Of a stretch of 64,000 nt of DNA, positions 3,381-64,000 are shown piece after piece. The notes below the pieces were generated by a model that saw only the letters and a program-made list of their open reading frames with translations, was not told the DNA's origin and made no database searches. Numbering within the stretch: position 1 is the stretch's first letter; every line of letters begins with the position of its first letter. The translations under genes were made by a program, and so were the position numbers. This DNA is from an uncultured Bacilli bacterium (GTDB lineage: Bacteria; Bacillota_I; Bacilli_A; RF39; UBA660): positions 64,129-128,128 of the forward strand of contig CAKOTA010000001.1 of assembly GCA_934119965.1 (NCBI GenBank), read 5' to 3'.

Positions 3381-4770
3381 CAAAATAGTAGGTATTACTA
3401 CAGGTATCATATTAATTTTATTAACTATTCTTTTAATATTACAACTTAATAATTTAAATATTTTACCACCAAAATATCTATCGTTATTTACATTTATATT
3501 ATTATTATTTAATATACTTTCTATAATTTTTGTATTTATAGATAAAAAAATATTCAAAATTATAGGATATACATTATCAGTTATATTAATAATATTTAAT
3601 TTAATTTTTTGTTACTATATAAAAACAACTAATAATTTTTTAAATAACACTATAGTTAAAGTAAATGAATATACAAATGAATATGTACTAATAACTTTAA
3701 AAGATAGTGAAATTACCGAACTTAAAAACATTAATAAAATTGGTTATTATAGTCAAATACCAAATATAAATGAGGCTTTAGAAAAATTAAAAGAGTTTTC
3801 TAACATTAAATATAATGATTTAAATAAATTAATAGCTGATTTAAATAACAAAAATATAAATGTAATATTATTAGAAAAAAACTTGTATGAATTTATATTT
3901 AACTTAGATAAAAATTTAAATAAAGATGATTATAAAATAATATACGAATTTAGTATTAATATAAAAGAAAATGTTTCTATATCAAAATATAATGATAAAT
4001 TTAATATTTATATTGGAGGACTAGATTTTACAGGAAAAATATATGATTTTAATATGTTAGTTACTATAAATGAAGAAAAATCTAAAATATTACTAACTAG
4101 TATACCAAGAGATTATCATATTGATGTATATGGTAAAAATGGAAAAGACAATATAAATTACCACGGTATGTGGGGAATAACAACAACAATGAAATCATTA
4201 GAACAATTATTTGATACAAAAATAGATTATTACATAAAAATAAACACAACAAGTTTAGTTAAACTAGTTGATATGTTAGGTGGAATAAATTATTGCAGTG
4301 ATTATGAATTTGTTACAACTCACGCATTAGTATTAAACACTTATAACGATAATGGTAAAAAATTATATGTAAAAAAAGGATGTAGAAATTATAATGGTAT
4401 TGAAACTTTAACTATTGCTCGTGAAAGATTAAATATACCTGGTGGTGATATGACAAGACAAGAAAATTGTAGAAAAATATTAATGAGCATAATGAATAAA
4501 ATCGTAAGTTTTGATAGTATTACAAAATACAATGAATTATTAGATAATGTAAGTGATTTATATACTACTAATATACCGAAAGAAACAATAACTGAAATAA
4601 TCAAAAAAACATTAGAAAACAATAATTGGAATATTGAAACTACAGAAGTAACAGGAACTATATCAAAAGGGTATGTTCATTTAAGCAACTATATAGACTA
4701 TATAAATATACCTAATTATGATAGTGTTAATGAAACAAAAAATAAAATAAATGAAAATTTGACAAAATAA
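3361..4770 (+). CDS. LytR-CpsA-Psr (LCP) family glycopolymer transferase with long N-terminal membrane/extracellular extension
   Basis: RBS GAGGTGA. N-terminal TM spans, then the LCP core motifs LTSIPRDYHIDVYG ... TLTIARER. Overlaps the wzx end by 20 nt. Confidence 0.8.
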   Translation: MKKIETDKIVGITTGIILILLTILLILQLNNLNILPPKYLSLFTFILLLFNILSIIFVFIDKKIFKIIGYTLSVILIIFNLIFCYYIKTTNNFLNNTIVKVNEYTNEYVLITLKDSEITELKNINKIGYYSQIPNINEALEKLKEFSNIKYNDLNKLIADLNNKNINVILLEKNLYEFIFNLDKNLNKDDYKIIYEFSINIKENVSISKYNDKFNIYIGGLDFTGKIYDFNMLVTINEEKSKILLTSIPRDYHIDVYGKNGKDNINYHGMWGITTTMKSLEQLFDTKIDYYIKINTTSLVKLVDMLGGINYCSDYEFVTTHALVLNTYNDNGKKLYVKKGCRNYNGIETLTIARERLNIPGGDMTRQENCRKILMSIMNKIVSFDSITKYNELLDNVSDLYTTNIPKETITEIIKKTLENNNWNIETTEVTGTISKGYVHLSNYIDYINIPNYDSVNETKNKINENLTK

Positions 4771-4812
4771 AATATTGCTATATAATAAACAACAATTAAA
4801 GGGGGAAAATTT

Positions 4813-6216
4813 ATGGAAGAAAAAGAATTTGATTTTTCATATATAATGCAAACAATATGGAAAAGATTTTTAATAATACTATTATTTATAATAATAGGCG
4901 TTGGTGCTAGTATATTTTATAACTATGGCGCTAAAATTATTTATGAAAGTGAAACAACATTATACGTTCAACCAGAAGTAAAATCTTCAGAAGTAGATTA
5001 TGAAGGAATATTAACAAATCAAAAAATGGTTAAAACATATACAGAAATAATAAAAAGTAGAAAAATAATTAACAAAGTAAAAGAAAAATTAGAATTAAAT
5101 TTAACTTATGAAGAAATATCTGATATGTTAAAAGTAACATCAGTTAATGATACTGAAATAATAACAATAACAGTTGATAACGAAAGTCCTAAATTAGCAA
5201 TGGATATAGCTAATGAAGTTGCAAATGTATTTATTGAAGAAATAAAAGAAACAATGGAAATAAATAATATTAAAGTAATAGATAAGGCAATAGAAGGAAC
5301 AGAACCAGTATCTCCTAGAGTATTATTTAATTGTATGATTGGTTTTGCAGGTGGACTATTTGTAGGTTTAGCTATTGCATTCTTAATTGAATCAATGGAT
5401 AATAAAATTAAAAATCACGAGGATGTTAAAAAATATCTAAAAATTAAAACTTTAGGAGTTGTACCTCATAATTCAATTGATTATGAAGTATCAGGTAAAA
5501 AGAAAGTATATGTAAATCCAAATGAAGTTAATCTAAAAATAATTAATGATCCAACAAGTGTTGTATCAGAATCAATAAGAATGATAAGAACTAATTTAAA
5601 TTTTTCAGATTTAAAACTAATAAATGTTACATCAACAGTACCAAGTGAAGGTAAATCTGAAGTATTATCTAATTTAGCAATTTCATTTGCGATGCTAGAT
5701 AAAAAAGTATTAGTAGTAGACTGTGATTTAAGAAAACCAAAAGTTCATAGAAATTTTGGATTAACAAGAAAAAGAGGGGTTTCAGATTTAGTTTTAGCTA
5801 AAGGAACACACAAATATACTGAAGCTATTCAAACATATCAAGATAAAGACAAAAAGGTAAGTATTGATATATTATCAGCAGGTTCAAAAATATCAAATCC
5901 TTCTGAATTAATAAACAACAAAGGATTTGCTGAATTATTAAAAGAATTAAGAGAAAATTATGATTTAGTTTTAGTAGATTGTCCTCCAATATCTTCATTA
6001 ACAGATGGTGTATTAGTATCTAAATTATGTGATGGTACAGTTTATGTCATTGAAGCTGAAAGAACAGATCACGGAGTTATAGAAAGTTGTATTGAAGAAC
6101 TTAAAAATAATAATGTATTTGTTTTAGGAGCAGTATTAACAAAAGTAAATATAAAAAGACAAAAGAAACTATATGGATATAAATATGATTATTACTATTC
6201 TAATTATAATAAATAA
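4813..6216 (+). CDS. Fused Wzz/CpsC chain-length modulator plus CpsD-type bacterial tyrosine (BY) autokinase
   Basis: RBS AAGGGGGA. N-terminal Wzz-like domain between two TM spans. Has Walker A PSEGKSEV, Walker A-prime VLVVDCDLRKP and Walker B DLVLVDCPP. C-terminal Tyr cluster is YGYKYDYYYSNYNK. Confidence 0.85.
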   Translation: MEEKEFDFSYIMQTIWKRFLIILLFIIIGVGASIFYNYGAKIIYESETTLYVQPEVKSSEVDYEGILTNQKMVKTYTEIIKSRKIINKVKEKLELNLTYEEISDMLKVTSVNDTEIITITVDNESPKLAMDIANEVANVFIEEIKETMEINNIKVIDKAIEGTEPVSPRVLFNCMIGFAGGLFVGLAIAFLIESMDNKIKNHEDVKKYLKIKTLGVVPHNSIDYEVSGKKKVYVNPNEVNLKIINDPTSVVSESIRMIRTNLNFSDLKLINVTSTVPSEGKSEVLSNLAISFAMLDKKVLVVDCDLRKPKVHRNFGLTRKRGVSDLVLAKGTHKYTEAIQTYQDKDKKVSIDILSAGSKISNPSELINNKGFAELLKELRENYDLVLVDCPPISSLTDGVLVSKLCDGTVYVIEAERTDHGVIESCIEELKNNNVFVLGAVLTKVNIKRQKKLYGYKYDYYYSNYNK

Positions 6217-57828: not shown

Positions 57829-58150
57829 TTGAATAAAGAAAATATTAAAAATAGAATTTTTATAGCAATAATAACAATGATAATATGTATAAACGGAACG
57901 CTGTATGCCACAAATAAATATCGAGTAGGTGAAATAATATATAATACAAGTGATGGGGAATGAATTATACAATAGTTGTAATTCATCAAAAGATGAATGT
58001 CCAGTTGAAAGTTGTGAGATGAAATCATATTGTAATTTTTCTTTAGCTAATGATATTAATTATGGTGGTGTAAAAGGCACTAGTTACATCAATACTAGTA
58101 ACAGAGACTATAGTTATTACGGCTCTAGCTTACCTAATTCGTATTTTTAA
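57829..58150 (+). pseudogene. Frameshifted gene for a small secreted Cys-rich protein (about 106 aa if repaired)
   Basis: A TTG-initiated ORF encodes the signal peptide MNKENIKNRIFIAIITMIICINGTLYA and stops at TGA 57961. The +1 frame continues from the GGGG run (57955-57958) as NELYNSCNSSKDECPVESCEMKSYCNF... to 58150. Confidence 0.45.
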
Positions 58151-58236
58151 TAAGTTGAAATAAAGTTTAATTAGAATGCTAATTATTCTTTTTTTATGTT
58201 AAAATATATGATAAAATTAAATAAGAGGTGAGATAT

Positions 58237-59514
58237 ATGCTAAAGGAAAAAGTTTTACCAGCCGATACATTTATTGTTATAAATAAAACAATCTTAAATG
58301 AGTATGATCGTAAACTTTTAATAATGCTATATCAACCAATAATTGGCTATAAAGCAATAAGTTTATACTTTTCACTTTGGATGTACCTAGATAAAAGAGA
58401 AATTATGTCAAATGAATTTACTCATCATCAATTAATGACAACAATGCAATTAAGACTAAGTGAAATAGTAGAAGCAAGAGAAAAATTAGAAGCAATTGGA
58501 TTATTAAAAACATATGTAAGAAAATCAAATATAAATAATTTTATATATGAAATATATTCACCAATAAGTGCTTATGAATTTTTAAACAATCCTGTATTAG
58601 TGACAGCACTATATAATAATATTGGAAAAAATGAATATGAAAAAATAATTGAATACTATAAAATTCCAAGAATAAGTTTAAAAGAATATGAAGAAATAAC
58701 TTGTAGTTTTAATGAAATATTTTCTTCAACTAACATAAATGGTTTTGAAAGACTAGAAAATATAAATAAATATAGTTCAAATAAAATAAAAATAGAATCT
58801 AAAATAGATTTAGATAATATCTTAAGTTTAATACCAGACGAAATTTTAAATGTAAGAAGTTTAACTAATGAAACAAAAGAATTAATAAATAAAATATCAT
58901 TTATTTATAATTATGATGATGTTAGAATGAGTGAATTGATAAGAGAATCATTAACAGATAAAAAAACAATTGATAAACAAGCATTAAAAATAAATAGTAG
59001 AAAATACTATCAATTTGAAAATAGTGGTAAATTACCAAGCTTGGTATATAGAACTCAACCAGAATATTTAAGAAAACCAGTAGGTGACACAAGTAATAGA
59101 GCTAAAATAATTTATCAATTTGAAACAACAACACCATATGACTTTTTACAAAGTAAATATAAAAATGGGAAACCATCAAAAAGCGATATTGCTATATTAG
59201 AATATCTATTATTAGATATGAACCTAAACGCTGGAGTTGTAAATGTACTAATAGATTATGTATTAAAAATAAATAATAATAAATTAACAAAAAACTTTGT
59301 TGATGCAATTGCAAGTCAATGGGCTAAAAGTAAAGTAGAAACAGTAGAAGAAGCAATGAAAATAGCTGAAAAGGAATATAAAAACAAAAAAACAACAACT
59401 AAAAAACAAAAGGAAGAAAAACCTACTTGGTTTAATCAAAATATAGAAGCACAAGAGGCCTCTGAAGAAAAAATAAAAGAATTAGATAAAATGTTTAGTA
59501 AATTTGGAGGATAA
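58237..59514 (+). CDS. dnaB: Replication initiation and membrane attachment protein (Bacillus-type DnaB, not the helicase)
   Basis: RBS AGAGGTGA. LYQPIIGYKAISLYFSLW N-terminal motif and a DnaD/DnaB_2-like C-terminal half. Followed by dnaI, as in B. subtilis. Confidence 0.8.
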   Translation: MLKEKVLPADTFIVINKTILNEYDRKLLIMLYQPIIGYKAISLYFSLWMYLDKREIMSNEFTHHQLMTTMQLRLSEIVEAREKLEAIGLLKTYVRKSNINNFIYEIYSPISAYEFLNNPVLVTALYNNIGKNEYEKIIEYYKIPRISLKEYEEITCSFNEIFSSTNINGFERLENINKYSSNKIKIESKIDLDNILSLIPDEILNVRSLTNETKELINKISFIYNYDDVRMSELIRESLTDKKTIDKQALKINSRKYYQFENSGKLPSLVYRTQPEYLRKPVGDTSNRAKIIYQFETTTPYDFLQSKYKNGKPSKSDIAILEYLLLDMNLNAGVVNVLIDYVLKINNNKLTKNFVDAIASQWAKSKVETVEEAMKIAEKEYKNKKTTTKKQKEEKPTWFNQNIEAQEASEEKIKELDKMFSKFGG

Positions 59515-59515
59515 T

Positions 59516-60406
59516 ATGGAACAAGTAAAATTAGTTAAAAAAAATACTAACTTGATGAATGAATTTAATAAGTTACTTAAAGATGAAGAATTTAAAGAAT
59601 ATATCGATAAACTAAAAATTCCGTATGAGGAATTAGCAAAATATACGAGCATATTAGAAACTTGCAAAAATGAATATTATAATTGTAAAAATTGTAAATC
59701 AATATTAGAATGCAAAAACAAAATAGAAGGATGCTTATATTTACCAATAAATAAAAATGGAATAAGATTTTGTTATAAACCTTGTAAATACAAAAAGAAT
59801 ATTGAGAAAAAAACTAAATATTTAGATAATATATATATTTTTAATATTCCTAGTACTATAAAAGAAGCAAACATAAAAGATATATATAAAAAAGATGAAA
59901 ATAGATTCGAAGTAATAAAATATTTGCTACAATTTACCGATGATTATATAAACAAAAAAAATCCTAAAGGATTATATTTGTATGGTAACTTTGGATGTGG
60001 TAAAACTTATTTAATAAGCGCTATATTTAATGAATTAGCAAAACAAAACATTGATTCAGCGATTGTATTTTGGCCAGAATATTTAAGAATGTTAAAATCA
60101 TTATTTAATGACAATTCTGAATTTAGAAAAAATTATGATAGAGTAAAAAATACAAAATTATTATTAATAGATGATTTAGGAGCCGAAAATAACACAACTT
60201 GGTCTAGAGATGAGATTCTCTGTCCAATATTACAATATCGTATGGAAAATAATTTACCAACTTTTATTACTTCTAATTTAAATTTAGAAGCACTAGAAAA
60301 TCATCTAAGTTTTAATGGAAATGAAAGCATTAAAGCAAAAAGGATAATCGAAAGAATTAATCAATTAACTGAATATAAAGAAATGATAAGTAAAAACTTA
60401 AGATAA
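59516..60406 (+). CDS. dnaI: Primosomal helicase loader DnaI
   Basis: RBS GGAGG. N-terminal Cys-rich zinc module. Has Walker A GNFGCGKTYL and Walker B LLLIDDLG. Confidence 0.85.
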   Translation: MEQVKLVKKNTNLMNEFNKLLKDEEFKEYIDKLKIPYEELAKYTSILETCKNEYYNCKNCKSILECKNKIEGCLYLPINKNGIRFCYKPCKYKKNIEKKTKYLDNIYIFNIPSTIKEANIKDIYKKDENRFEVIKYLLQFTDDYINKKNPKGLYLYGNFGCGKTYLISAIFNELAKQNIDSAIVFWPEYLRMLKSLFNDNSEFRKNYDRVKNTKLLLIDDLGAENNTTWSRDEILCPILQYRMENNLPTFITSNLNLEALENHLSFNGNESIKAKRIIERINQLTEYKEMISKNLR

Positions 60407-60423
60407 TGGAAGTAGGGGGATTT

Positions 60424-62511
60424 ATGGATATACAAAAAGAAGTAGATACAATATTATACAAATTAGAACAAAATGAAGAATTAACAATAAAATTAGAAAT
60501 AGAACAAATAATTAGTAATATTAAAAAACAAAAGAATGTAAAATTATTTTATAAATTACTAATTAATAAATTAGAGAAAAAGATTATTACAACAGCAAGT
60601 TTAATTGCTAACTCTACTAGTCAAGAAGAACTAAAAGCAGAAGCAATTTTCTTAAAAAAATATTTGAATGTTACACAATACTTAAAAGAAGAATATGAAT
60701 TATTTAAAAAACAATATGTTGAAGAAAAAATAATTGAAATTCCTAAAAATAAAAAAAATTTTATGGAATATAATAAACAAAAATTTAATGTATTAAAGTT
60801 AGAAAATGAAGAACAAGATATTGAAAGTGAAGAAGAAAACAATGTAATTAATTTTGTAAATACATATATAGAAATGATTAAAAATTTAAATATTTTAGAA
60901 AATTCAGAAAATTTCATAGAAGAATCTCGTAACTTATATAATGAAATCTATGGATATTTGTGCGAAACTAAAAGTTTGTTTCCAGAATTTACATATTTAA
61001 TCGATATATTAAGTAATAAATATAGATGTTGTGAGAAAAATTCAACTGAAAGAAAAATATTAAAACCAATAATAAAAAAATTTACGGAAATTCACCGAGT
61101 TTTTAGTACTAAAGAAAATCCAACAAATGAAAATCCATATTTTGATGTAATTAACTTTTGGTTTACAAATGATGATAATTATTTGTATATAAAAGAATTA
61201 ATTAAAAGAAAACCAGAAGTTTGTAGTATGCATAATAATGGAAAACATATTGCAGTTCATATTTTAGAACAATATATTGAGAACTTTAAAAAAATGATTA
61301 TTGATAAAAATAATGATTATATTAATAAAAACTATTTAAAAGAAATATATTATTTAATAACTAAAAATAGTCATTTGCGAATAAGTGATGAAGAAAAAAA
61401 TCAAATAGACACTATGATAAAAGATTTTTCAATATTTATTAAAGAATTTATCATAAAAGAAAGAAGAAAAAACGCTGCATTGTTAGAATTAAAAACAATG
61501 AAAACGAGTCATTATTATAAAAAATACATTAGTTATGACTTTAATAAATATTCAATAGACAATTTAACATATGAAAAAAATAGAGTGTATGATGGTAATG
61601 TTTCCAGAATTAAAAATGAACCATATGTTGAAGCATTTTTAATAGGTGATAAAGCATACAATATTACTAAACAACAAGGCGAAATATCTCTAAAAATGTA
61701 TACATTTAATATTAGTGGCTATATTAGTGAAAGATCAATTATGTATAATTATCTTGAACAATGTGAGTTCAAAAAAGAACAAATTGACGATTTTGTAGCT
61801 AATACTTTCAAATTTAAATTAGATAATATTTATCCAACAATTTGCTATAATTTAAAATTTTATGAAAGTGGAAGATTAAAAGAATTAGCAGTAACAAAAG
61901 AAAATATTAAAATTACTAATCAAGATAAAACTTTTGACCAAAATGGTGAAATGAAAGAATTTTATGATTTGTATAAAAAATCTATTATTAAAAATGGAGG
62001 TATAAGTACAAATTATAACTTATCAATAGTTAATGAACATTTCGAAAATCTTTTAAACGATGAATTTGTTGAATTTATAAAAACAAATAAACTACCATTT
62101 ATATATTACGGATATTCATTACCAAATGTAAGAAAAGTTAATTATAATATGAATGCATTGTCATCAATTTTATATAATATTGATAAAACTATAGCATATG
62201 AAATAATTAACATAACAAGTTCAAAAATTGATAAAGAACATTATTCTTTATTTCCGATCGAAGATGCTCATTATGATTTGAGACTAGTTGATTCCTTTAA
62301 TTTAATTGGAATTATTAATCAAAAAATGCTAAATGATATATACTTTGATGGCTATTGTTTTAGTTCTGAAAGAAGAAAAGAAAAAGAAAAACGAATTCGT
62401 TTAATGGATTATTATAAAATAGTAAGTGAACTAAATTCTTATATTAATTATGTAGATGTTTCTGAAATAAAAGAAAGCAAAGGAAAAATAAAACGAAAAT
62501 TTAAAATATAA
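60424..62511 (+). CDS. Hypothetical 695-aa protein with degenerate RNase II/R (RNB)-like motif series
   Basis: ATG after AGGGGGA. AFLIGDKAY, then about 20 aa later FNISGYI (compare DDA..., HIADVSHYV). FENLLNDEFVEFIKTNKLPFIYYGYSLPNVRKV (compare IEEFMLLANE...KLPFLYRVHEKPDPEKL). LFPIEDAHYDL (compare FTSPIRRYPDL). Catalytic Asp/Arg residues are mostly replaced. Confidence 0.4.
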   Translation: MDIQKEVDTILYKLEQNEELTIKLEIEQIISNIKKQKNVKLFYKLLINKLEKKIITTASLIANSTSQEELKAEAIFLKKYLNVTQYLKEEYELFKKQYVEEKIIEIPKNKKNFMEYNKQKFNVLKLENEEQDIESEEENNVINFVNTYIEMIKNLNILENSENFIEESRNLYNEIYGYLCETKSLFPEFTYLIDILSNKYRCCEKNSTERKILKPIIKKFTEIHRVFSTKENPTNENPYFDVINFWFTNDDNYLYIKELIKRKPEVCSMHNNGKHIAVHILEQYIENFKKMIIDKNNDYINKNYLKEIYYLITKNSHLRISDEEKNQIDTMIKDFSIFIKEFIIKERRKNAALLELKTMKTSHYYKKYISYDFNKYSIDNLTYEKNRVYDGNVSRIKNEPYVEAFLIGDKAYNITKQQGEISLKMYTFNISGYISERSIMYNYLEQCEFKKEQIDDFVANTFKFKLDNIYPTICYNLKFYESGRLKELAVTKENIKITNQDKTFDQNGEMKEFYDLYKKSIIKNGGISTNYNLSIVNEHFENLLNDEFVEFIKTNKLPFIYYGYSLPNVRKVNYNMNALSSILYNIDKTIAYEIINITSSKIDKEHYSLFPIEDAHYDLRLVDSFNLIGIINQKMLNDIYFDGYCFSSERRKEKEKRIRLMDYYKIVSELNSYINYVDVSEIKESKGKIKRKFKI

Positions 62512-62539
62512 TTGACTTTTCAAATAATTGTAGTAAAAT
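62512..62539 (+). promoter_or_regulatory. Sigma-A type promoter for the T-box leader
   Basis: TTGACT, 16-nt spacer, TAAAAT. Confidence 0.6.
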
Positions 62540-62545
62540 TATATT

Positions 62546-62754
62546 TAATAAATATTTTGATTAGGACACGATTATTAATTGATACTATAGAGAGATTTAG
62601 GAAATGGTGAGATCCTAAAAAGTTAGATTATTAATTACTACCTATGAATTGGACTTGAAAAATGTTCCCGGGTAATTCCGTTATTTAAATTAAGTTAAAC
62701 ATAGGATGGTACCGTGTTAAGCACTCCTTATATAGAAATATATAAGGTTTTTTT
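62546..62754 (+). promoter_or_regulatory. T-box riboswitch leader, threonine specifier
   Basis: AGAGA bulge (tatagagaga). Distal-loop-like TGGTGAGA. Specifier region attaACTACCta (ACU 62637-62639 followed by A; ACC 62640-62642). T-box sequence AACATAGGATGGTACCGTG at about 62698-62716. Ends in a terminator. Confidence 0.8.
62726..62754 (+). terminator. T-box leader terminator
   Basis: CCTTATATA gaaa TATATAAGG followed by seven T. Confidence 0.8.
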
Positions 62755-62768
62755 ATGAGGTGAGTAGT

Positions 62769-63464
62769 ATGGAAAATTTTAAAGAAATGTTAGAAAATTA
62801 TTTAGATGATGAAGAAATTAATTATAAGAAAAAATTGGATGATTTAGAAGAAAAACCTAAAAATACTACTTCTAGATATAGACATGATTTTGAAAATACA
62901 ATAACAATTTATGAGTTTGTAAATGATTATTTAGAAGTAAATCAAGATTGTAAAAATTTAAGACATATTGGTTTAAAATCTTTTAATAGTCCTTACATAA
63001 TAGGTGTATCAAATGATTTTGCAATCAAAAATAAGGAATATGTTTTAAGAAATGAAATATTAATAGTTGCTGATGCTTATAATAATCCAGCAGCATATAT
63101 TAATCCTATATTATTAAGACAAATAACCACAATGGAAGAATTAAAACATACAATGAGTATCTTAGAAAAAGTAAGATTACATGATTTAATGGATGTTAGA
63201 AAATTATATGAACAATTTGATTTTATTAATAAACAAATAAATCGATTGGAAATGTTTTACCTAGATGGAACAGAATTATTAAGAAAATTAAATAAGAAAA
63301 ATATATTAAAAGAAATTAAAAAATATGCAAAACAAATTTCAGAAAATAAAAATAAAATTAGTGACATTCAATCTGATATTGAAAATACTATAATTTTAGA
63401 ACACTCACTAATTGAAAAAGTAAATACAAAGTCATTAGAAAAGAAAGAGGGAAAAATAAAATGA
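62769..63464 (+). CDS. Hypothetical 231-aa protein, first gene of the T-box-controlled operon
   Basis: ATG after GAGGTGA. Acidic N-terminus and a helical/coiled C-terminal half. Its stop overlaps the thrS start (ATGA). Confidence 0.6.
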   Translation: MENFKEMLENYLDDEEINYKKKLDDLEEKPKNTTSRYRHDFENTITIYEFVNDYLEVNQDCKNLRHIGLKSFNSPYIIGVSNDFAIKNKEYVLRNEILIVADAYNNPAAYINPILLRQITTMEELKHTMSILEKVRLHDLMDVRKLYEQFDFINKQINRLEMFYLDGTELLRKLNKKNILKEIKKYAKQISENKNKISDIQSDIENTIILEHSLIEKVNTKSLEKKEGKIK

Positions 63465-64000
63465 TAAACATAAAAGAAGATAAAAATTTAAACATTTTAA
63501 ATCATAGTTGTGCTCACTTAATGGCACAAGCTGTAAAACATTTATATCCAGATGCTAAATTTTGGGTAGGACCAGTCATCGAAGAAGGATTTTATTATGA
63601 TATTGATTTAGGTGATAAGACATTAACTGATGACGATTTAATATTAATTGAAAAAGAAATGAAAAAAATATCTAAAGATGGTAAAAGAATATATCGAGAA
63701 GAAATATCAAAAGAAGAAGCTTTGGAAAGATTTAAAGATGATCCATATAAGATTGATTTAATATCTAGAATGGATGAAAAAGATACAGTTATTTCTTGTT
63801 ATACTCAAGGAGATTTTACAGATTTATGTAGAGGACCACACGTTGAGACTGTAAAAGTTATTAAATATTTTAAATTATTAAAATTTAGTGGAGCATATTG
63901 GAAAGGTGATTCAAAAAACAAAATGCTTCAAAGAATATATGGTGTTTGTTTTGAAACAGAAGAAGATTTAAATAATCATTTAAAAGAGTTATCTGAATTG
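63461..64000 (+). CDS. thrS: Threonine--tRNA ligase, 5-prime part (runs off the window); begins at the editing/second additional domain, with no TGS domain
   Basis: MINIKEDKNLNILNHSCAHLMAQAVKHLYPDAKFWVGPVIEEGFYYD ... CRGPH ... SGAYWKGDSKNKMLQRIYG aligns with ThrS from about residue 65 of the E. coli enzyme. Confidence 0.9.
   Translation, partial: MINIKEDKNLNILNHSCAHLMAQAVKHLYPDAKFWVGPVIEEGFYYDIDLGDKTLTDDDLILIEKEMKKISKDGKRIYREEISKEEALERFKDDPYKIDLISRMDEKDTVISCYTQGDFTDLCRGPHVETVKVIKYFKLLKFSGAYWKGDSKNKMLQRIYGVCFETEEDLNNHLKELSEL

Follow-up and report, generated by a model that had tools for sequence, protein, structure and literature searches.

Within 64,000 nt of the genome of an uncultured Bacilli bacterium (GTDB lineage Bacteria; Bacillota_I; Bacilli_A; RF39; UBA660), on contig CAKOTA010000001.1 of assembly GCA_934119965.1, positions 64,129 to 128,128 (hereafter the window), a threonine-specific T-box leader is followed by a gene for a 231-aa protein and then by thrS, the gene for threonyl-tRNA synthetase (ThrRS). 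The first of these genes is referred to here by its open reading frame (ORF), as ORF231, and the genome of the window, which is 1.38 Mb in size with 25% GC, as G000. Our favoured interpretation, to which we assign a probability of roughly 0.6, is that the leader acts by attenuation and heads a bicistronic ORF231-thrS operon, in which ORF231 is a passenger and not a dedicated ThrS subunit or a replacement for the TGS domain. Nearly every synthetase T-box operon in this genome has an unrelated first gene, so ORF231 looks like a passenger too. We read it as the most frequent gene to have settled in a permissive slot between leader and synthetase.

The threonine leader and the genes behind it

The leader and the two genes that follow it comprise these features, in window coordinates:

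62512..62539, + strand: putative sigma-70-type promoter, TTGACT (62512-62517), 16-nt spacer, TAAAAT (62534-62539)
62548-62731, + strand: T-box leader, Rfam RF00230, model positions 1-219 untruncated, 68.8 bits, E 7.9e-14
62589-62593, + strand: AG bulge AGAGA of Stem I, which also has the GA/K-turn region and the distal loop UGGUGAGA
62637-62639, + strand: specifier ACU, taken from the covariance-model alignment, followed by A (a purine) and then by the closing CC
62678-62683, + strand: F-box CCGTTA (RNA CCGUUA)
62703-62716, + strand: T-box sequence AGGATGGTACCGTG (RNA AGGAUGGUACCGUG) with the bulge UGGU
62726-62754, + strand: intrinsic terminator CCTTATATA / GAAA / TATATAAGG followed by T7, in RNA a 9-bp stem CCUUAUAUA/UAUAUAAGG with a GAAA loop and U7
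62769..63464, + strand: ORF231, the first cistron, 231 aa, with the Shine-Dalgarno (SD) sequence GAGGTG at 62757-62762, 6 nt before the ATG
63461..64000, + strand: 5' part of thrS; the complete gene, which continues outside the window, encodes 585 aa

A preliminary description of this DNA, made from its letters, had proposed a promoter, an AGAGA bulge, an ACU/ACC specifier, a T-box sequence and a terminator, and all of these are found at the places it gave. The covariance model does not reject the T-box and reads the specifier as ACU. The overlapping ACC is a threonine codon as well, and one or the other is retained in all of the approximately 30 thrS leaders examined. The score of the thrS leader is below the curated gathering score of 93 because of its AT-richness and its missing Stem III, of which about 1 nt is left against 19 model positions. 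Half of the ten T-box matches in the genome score below this value, including the leaders before pheS, alaS and ileS.

The tRNA-Thr anticodons among the 21 tRNA genes found in the assembly are UGU and CGU only. Both of these genes end in GGC-A-CCA, and the discriminator base is therefore A73; the UGGU bulge is complementary to the ACCA end of both, with A73 pairing to U. The terminator hairpin is present in the minimum free energy fold. It was missed by a consensus scanner, which demands three G-C pairs, because its stem is AT-rich. Its 5' arm, (C)UCCUUAU, overlaps the UCCU of the antiterminator 3' arm, and the two structures are mutually exclusive by prediction. Among 45 leaders listed, equivalent hairpins with a U-run are found, their structure being kept and their sequences differing. 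The TTGACT-TAAAAT pair is the best promoter-like site of the region, with 10 of 12 matches to the consensus, and would drive transcription of the leader. Both hexamers are kept in genomes G002, G009 and G010 and in contig L001, all of which have the same promoter, leader, ORF231 and thrS; the gene order also recurs in metagenome contigs L114, L115 and L117.

As the preliminary description had pointed out, the leader stands upstream of ORF231 and not directly upstream of thrS, and ORF231 has a good ribosome-binding site. The TGA of ORF231 (63462-63464) overlaps the ATG of thrS (63461), with ATGA at 63461-63464, and this thrS is the only one in the assembly. The same description held that ORF231 is co-regulated with thrS by uncharged tRNA-Thr and coupled to it. 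Gene order, the ATGA overlap and conservation of the arrangement (21 of 22 family matches) support this; co-transcription, induction by threonine limitation, translational coupling and the passenger status of ORF231 are inferred.

We hypothesize that, when tRNA-Thr is charged, the hairpin at 62726-62754 would end transcription before both genes. Uncharged tRNA-Thr would pair with the ACU specifier through its anticodon and with the UGGU bulge through its ACCA end, and this pairing would stabilise the antiterminator, allowing RNA polymerase to read into ORF231 and thrS. Translation of thrS could then begin from its own SD within the last codons of ORF231, together with re-initiation at the ATGA overlap.

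In the thrS and thrZ genes of Bacillus subtilis, the leader lies directly before the synthetase gene and the specifier is ACC. The leader described here resembles those two in its threonine specifier in Stem I, AG bulge, distal loop and UGGN bulge, in its mutually exclusive antiterminator and terminator, and in that a ThrRS gene is controlled. It differs from them in the ACU specifier, the missing Stem III, the score below the gathering value and the 231-aa gene placed before thrS.

An arrangement of this kind might also be explained if thrS were expressed mainly from a promoter inside ORF231, in which case the T-box would control essentially ORF231, as the true threonine-responsive gene. We consider this very improbable. 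Hexamer pairs do occur within ORF231, for example at 63279-63307 and 63361-63389, and thrS has its own SD. However, promoter-like matches inside ORF231 are at chance level, with 15 found and 14.8 expected from shuffled sequence. A terminator scan detected no terminator-like sites inside ORF231, and none lies between ORF231 and thrS because the genes overlap. The leader is moreover orthologous to leaders that abut thrS in other genera and families and share its ACU specifier and its T-box sequence. A search of positions 58000-64000 with RF00230 returned no second T-box, and thus none for thrS inside ORF231, a possibility that the preliminary description had raised against its own proposal.

Occupants of the space between leader and synthetase

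The products encoded after the ten T-box leaders of G000 were identified with Pfam and NCBIfam, and the specifiers of these leaders were read by eye. Eight of the nine leaders belonging to aminoacyl-tRNA synthetase (aaRS) genes precede an unrelated first cistron that is not a synthetase, and only ileS follows its leader directly:

valS leader, then an HD-domain protein, then valS
metS leader, then a dUTPase, then metS
hisS leader, then an AAA ATPase, then hisS
leuS leader, then a 127-aa membrane protein, then leuS
tyrS leader, then DeoC and dUTPase_2, then tyrS
pheS leader, then an alpha/beta hydrolase, then pheS
alaS leader, then a deoxynucleoside monophosphate (dNMP) kinase, then alaS
thrS leader, then ORF231, then thrS
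ileS leader, then ileS directly
gatCAB leader, then gatCAB directly

Leaders of this genome lie at C3:9098-9302(-), C8:15864-16062(+), C10:36572-36752(+), C3:12231-12430(-), C25:952-1139(+), C3:39803-39977(-), C26:9694-9874(+) and, in the window, at 62548-62731; junctions in these operons are overlaps or gaps of at most 10 nt. Read by eye, the specifiers GUA, AUG, CUU, UAC, UUC, GCU, ACU and AUC match the synthetase and not the first gene. With the AAC of the gatCAB leader, nine of the ten leaders match the downstream aaRS or gatCAB and not a passenger, which further argues against ORF231 as the true target of the threonine leader. The tenth is the hisS leader (C10:36572-36752), whose specifier looks by eye like GAC (Asp) and not like a His codon, a reading that may indicate an operon of the hisS-aspS type responding to tRNA-Asp. 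The AlaS encoded in G000 (C26:10443-12188) is of the short, 582-aa kind (NF002436 / PRK01584), with an AlaX-like editing domain at its end.

The dUTPase (loci L091-L102 in relatives) lies between the T-box and metS in genera g1, g3 and g10, and the same trimeric dUTPase is found before tyrS in g4 and, in g12, between a threonine T-box and thrS. Among outgroup-family genomes, 10 have a match, and in none of these is the dUTPase gene close to a T-box or an aaRS gene. Passengers therefore move between T-box operons, as this one enzyme occurs before metS, tyrS and thrS. Since the dUTPase keeps its place before metS as faithfully as ORF231 keeps its place before thrS, adjacency alone says little for a thrS-linked role of ORF231.

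The space before thrS itself was surveyed by pairing leader ends with thrS starts in about 58 genera, a sample drawn from the matches listed. In this sample, approximately 20 genera have the leader directly before thrS (50-130 nt), and approximately 38 have an insert of 240-1090 nt. When 40 inserts were fetched, the gap was filled by an ORF of 60-266 aa in 39. A broader hidden Markov model (HMM) places the occupants in 13 genomes within the ORF231 family (G089, G125, G180, G035, G094, G076, G027, G073, G067, G134, G144, G169 and G175). The family also fills the slot in G020, G005 and G008 and, on the strength of weaker matches, in G012, G007 and G077. A dUTPase occupies it in G021, as found by tblastn (G021:C2:327-800), and in G107 and G108, as judged by eye. 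Other occupants have no detectable similarity to ORF231 and comprise helical proteins and Lys-rich peptides of 60-90 aa, as grouped by eye.

We suggest that the space between leader and synthetase is a general docking site in this family of small-genome Bacilli, with an occupant that varies by genus. A passenger arriving there would gain the promoter of the leader and an expression that depends on uncharged tRNA. T-box leaders are usually read as sensors for the gene that follows, and their specifier codons are used to annotate that gene. Annotation on this basis would mislabel most of the first genes described here, for example the dUTPase as Met- or Thr-related and the dNMP kinase as Ala-related. 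The pattern also suggests that leaders of the riboswitch type can serve, where a genome is very small and has few regulators, as shared modules of promoter and regulator on which passengers gather. In a more far-reaching version, which seems doubtful to us, the T-box leaders of these uncultured gut Bacilli with genomes of about 1 Mb would have become general operon heads that repeatedly capture, retain and swap genes, placing nucleotide-metabolism enzymes and orphan proteins under uncharged-tRNA control, and ORF231 could be a new factor associated with ThrRS or tRNA-Thr that arose after TGS loss.

Part of this has precedents. In a survey published in 2008, 8% of T-boxes precede unknown or unrelated genes (Wels et al. 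2008, PMC2494555). One of the categories in the survey is headed "tRNA ligase not first in the operon", with operons of the cysE-cysS type as examples, and the layout of leader, passenger and synthetase is therefore known as such. Its entries include spr1471 of Streptococcus pneumoniae, listed as a "Thr-tRNA ligase related hypothetical" (PMC2494555). In those operons, as in the one described here, the specifier fits the synthetase, which is encoded second, and in some cases the gene in front of it is hypothetical. In contrast to the 8% of the survey, eight of nine aaRS leaders in a single genome and about two-thirds of thrS leaders across the family have such a first gene, and the occupants vary. 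This near-universality in one lineage, combined with occupant turnover, appears not to have been known previously.

The rtpA operon of B. subtilis, which encodes anti-TRAP and is controlled by a tryptophan T-box, is similar in that a protein other than a synthetase is switched on by uncharged tRNA. However, anti-TRAP has a defined target, TRAP, and a tryptophan-related role, whereas ORF231 is without sequence similarity to it (the Pfam scan was negative). Nothing specifically points to a threonine-related function for ORF231.

ORF231 and a ThrRS without a TGS domain

ORF231 is a real gene under purifying selection that encodes a fast-evolving, cytoplasmic and lineage-specific protein. Between close genomes (7 pairs) its dN/dS is 0.19-0.43. 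The dN/dS of thrS is 0.04-0.08 in five of these pairs and 0.22-0.26 in the two most diverged, and ORF231 exceeds thrS in dN approximately 3-40-fold in the close pairs and by a factor of about 1.5 in the two most diverged. Seventeen close homologues were found, and a profile search of 1.84 billion representatives defined a family of 98 clusters at 50% identity, with members of 44-346 aa; a second search with the ORF231 profile made almost no additions. No stretch of 7-10 residues is conserved in the broad family alignment, and a locus search with the narrow alignment led to only two contigs, both of the same genus. A GTG start at 62760 was considered and rejected, as homologues begin with MENF or MEKF and the SD spacing fits the ATG at 62769. 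An alternative genetic code is not needed, given that thrS is open under table 11 and that the TGA of ORF231 is followed immediately by TAA.

Between two of the close genomes, G000 and G009 (L011 and L013), synonymous divergence changes along the locus, with a dS of 0.59 in ORF231 and 0.10 in thrS. This jump at the junction points either to a breakpoint of recent recombination or to a strong constraint on the codons of thrS.

The preliminary description had called the protein uncharacterised, and our searches with profiles and structures likewise matched no known family or fold. Neither Pfam nor NCBIfam has a match to ORF231 at E<=1, 65 family members gave no meaningful Pfam or PHROG match, and there are no sequence relatives in the PDB. 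An AlphaFold2 (AF2) model built on 16 close homologues was poor, with a predicted local distance difference test (pLDDT) score of 61, and an alignment of 65 sequences was required to reach a pLDDT of 91.2. The predicted fold begins with an acidic N-terminal pair of helices and a disordered linker, which lead into an alpha/beta core (residues 44-135, approximately); a long helical hairpin spans residues 140-226. Within the core, D102 and Y110 are invariant, and H66, N112 and P113 are nearly so. Foldseek returned nothing significant for this model in the PDB (best E 0.95) or BFVD (best E 0.02), and the weak matches were all to the coiled-coil part. The family is thus unannotated, with a fold that is confidently predicted and that has no PDB or viral match. 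An origin from phages or plasmids was rejected, as tblastn found no match in 50,697 phage and 72,556 plasmid records and PHROG similarity was negligible.

Conservation of the arrangement was assessed in a census of the family comprising 151 genomes, one per genus. The ORF231 profile matches 22 of them, and in 21 of the 22 the ORF is directly upstream of thrS on the same strand, which bears on the question, posed in the preliminary description, of whether orthologous thrS loci carry the same ORF. Contig L002 has the order dnaB-dnaI-P684-ORF197-spoIIIAH-gerE-Germane, with neither a T-box nor thrS at the locus (4001-5130). The genes after ORF197 in this contig (spoIIIAH-gerE-Germane) are those that come after thrS in L115, and the T-box and thrS were therefore removed from between the ORF and spoIIIAH. 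Contigs L003 and L004 have the order dnaI-RNB-ORF161-M23 peptidase followed by a threonine T-box, with the ORF upstream of the leader.

The ThrS protein of 585 aa has an editing domain (PF07973, tRNA_SAD), a class II core (PF00587) and an HGTP anticodon-binding domain (PF03129), and its N-terminal 180 aa match TIGR00418 with an E of 2.9e-46. The TGS domain (PF02824) was not found in the ThrS of the window, which begins at the editing (second additional) domain. In the family, all 141 of 141 thrS matches align from residue 1 of this truncated form, and thrS frames are approximately 575-630 aa, except for a few cut at contig ends. Single genomes of three other families (G037, G040 and G042) also have the short ThrS, and more distant families have frames of 638-676 aa with a Pfam TGS at residues 1-63. 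TGS-less ThrRS is thereby documented as the norm in a large uncultured clade. The short form also occurs where the leader abuts thrS without an ORF; TGS loss predates ORF231, reaches further than it does and is independent of it.

These results bear on the proposal of the preliminary description that ORF231 might be a ThrS accessory factor or a trans-acting substitute for the missing N-terminal domain. That ORF231 has no TGS-like sequence, as it also stated, agrees with the lack of a Pfam match, with an hhalign probability of 0.25% between the ORF231 family and an alignment of ThrS TGS domains, and with the absence of any ThrRS or TGS structure from the Foldseek matches, and on these grounds we rejected ORF231 as a TGS-like domain. 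Since every ThrS sampled in the family lacks TGS, whether or not the ORF is present, neither the substitute nor the accessory reading is supported. Both are further weakened by the unrelated genes in the slot elsewhere and by the unrelated first cistrons of eight of nine operons.

In a more developed form, ORF231 would be an accessory factor specific to ThrS or tRNA-Thr that was recruited after TGS loss and kept before thrS for stoichiometric co-expression. Binding might be to tRNA, through the hairpin and basic tail, or to the N-terminus of the truncated ThrS. We regard this as unlikely, although several observations fit it: adjacency to thrS in 21 of 22 family matches from more than 20 genera and in L114, L115 and L117, coupling of the two genes by ATGA or a short gap, the lack of TGS in every ThrS of the family, and a predicted compact conserved domain (D102, Y110, H66, N112, P113) joined to a long coiled-coil hairpin. 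On the other hand, TGS-less ThrS without the ORF is found in about one-third of the paired genera, as well as in G037, G040 and G042, and ORF231 is unlike TGS or any solved aaRS-associated fold. A dUTPase or unrelated ORFs occupy the slot in other genera, and the clearly unrelated dUTPase is kept equally faithfully before metS. A dN that is 3-40 times that of thrS, as in the close pairs, would be uncommon for a protein closely partnered with so conserved an enzyme, and family members persist outside thrS control in L002, L003 and L004.

Four points nevertheless weigh against ORF231 as a passenger of a threonine-attenuated operon. The fidelity of ORF231 to the thrS slot, in 21 of 22 matches and more than 20 genera despite its fast change, would fit a thrS-linked role. 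The helical hairpin and the basic C-terminal tails of the family recall the tRNA-binding appendages of some synthetases, a likeness that we take as resemblance only. Neither a tRNA-Thr(GGU) nor a tRNA-Thr(AGU) gene was found among the 21 tRNA genes of the assembly, which is 93% complete; there is no Watson-Crick isoacceptor for ACU in it, and we therefore assume that ACU is read by the UGU isoacceptor. Finally, judged by its letters, the AT-rich ORF231 might still harbour an internal thrS promoter. The ORF231 family, tied as it is to thrS, is a concrete candidate for tests of a ThrRS-linked function.

The upstream neighbourhood

Two genes in the window precede the leader:

59504..60406, + strand: dnaI, primosomal helicase loader, NCBIfam NF006505, 246.6 bits against a cutoff of 228
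60406..62511, + strand: P701, a 701-aa protein; the final base of its gene immediately precedes the -35 hexamer of the T-box promoter

The upstream synteny dnaB-dnaI-(P701)-T-box-(ORF)-thrS recurs in L001, L002, L114 and several genomes. P701 has no Pfam or NCBIfam match; its positional equivalent in L003 carries an RNB domain (PF00773), and P701 is probably a degenerate RNB/RNase II-like protein. In G002, G035, G178 and G172, a P701 homologue stands immediately before the thrS leader.

This neighbourhood raises the possibility that ORF231 works with the RNB-like P701, and perhaps with dnaB-dnaI, in RNA or DNA metabolism, the T-box having merely landed between them. Consistent with this, the last 14 nt of the P701 homologue in L002 (P684) are shared with the ORF and no T-box separates the two, and the 161-aa member in L003 and L004 starts 4 nt past a 623-aa RNB-domain protein, upstream of the threonine T-box. 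P701 homologues also abut the thrS leader in the ORF-bearing genomes G002, G035 and G178 and in L114 and L115. However, G005, G008 and G012 have dnaI, the T-box, the ORF and thrS with no P701, and G172 has P701 but no ORF. P701 was found in just 5 of the 151 genomes, in a single-sequence search that is insensitive for a fast-evolving protein. We consider such a partnership quite unlikely, and continue to favour ORF231 as a passenger of the threonine operon.

The corresponding Bacillus neighbourhood, which we take to be dnaB-dnaI-ytxB-ytxC-thrS, is similar in that thrS is downstream of dnaB-dnaI, with lineage-specific genes in between. It differs in that ORF231 has no YtxC match and in that the intervening gene is here downstream of the T-box, not upstream of it. 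An assignment of ORF231 to YtxC (PF08812 / TIGR02834) was rejected, as there is no profile match at E<=1 in Pfam or NCBIfam; PF08812 was absent from 61 of 61 related genomes, and the B. subtilis control was detected.

Two of the genomes that share the arrangement showed peculiarities of their own. In G010 (L009 / L034), the ORF231 homologue is separated from thrS by a further ORF, about 52 aa long. This ORF ends in EEGGKIK*, a repeat of the C-terminal end of ORF231 that bears the thrS SD and the ATGA overlap, and it has the appearance of a local duplication or of a tail displaced by a frameshift. G010 is a metagenome-assembled genome of 52% completeness, and its thrS match degrades along its length. 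The public record of the G002 contig (L041, CAZXOH010000041.1) is titled "uncultured Muribaculaceae bacterium". Its content of dnaI, T-box and thrS and a sister record ("uncultured Bacilli bacterium", Hadza gut) point to Bacilli, and the Muribaculaceae label is probably wrong.

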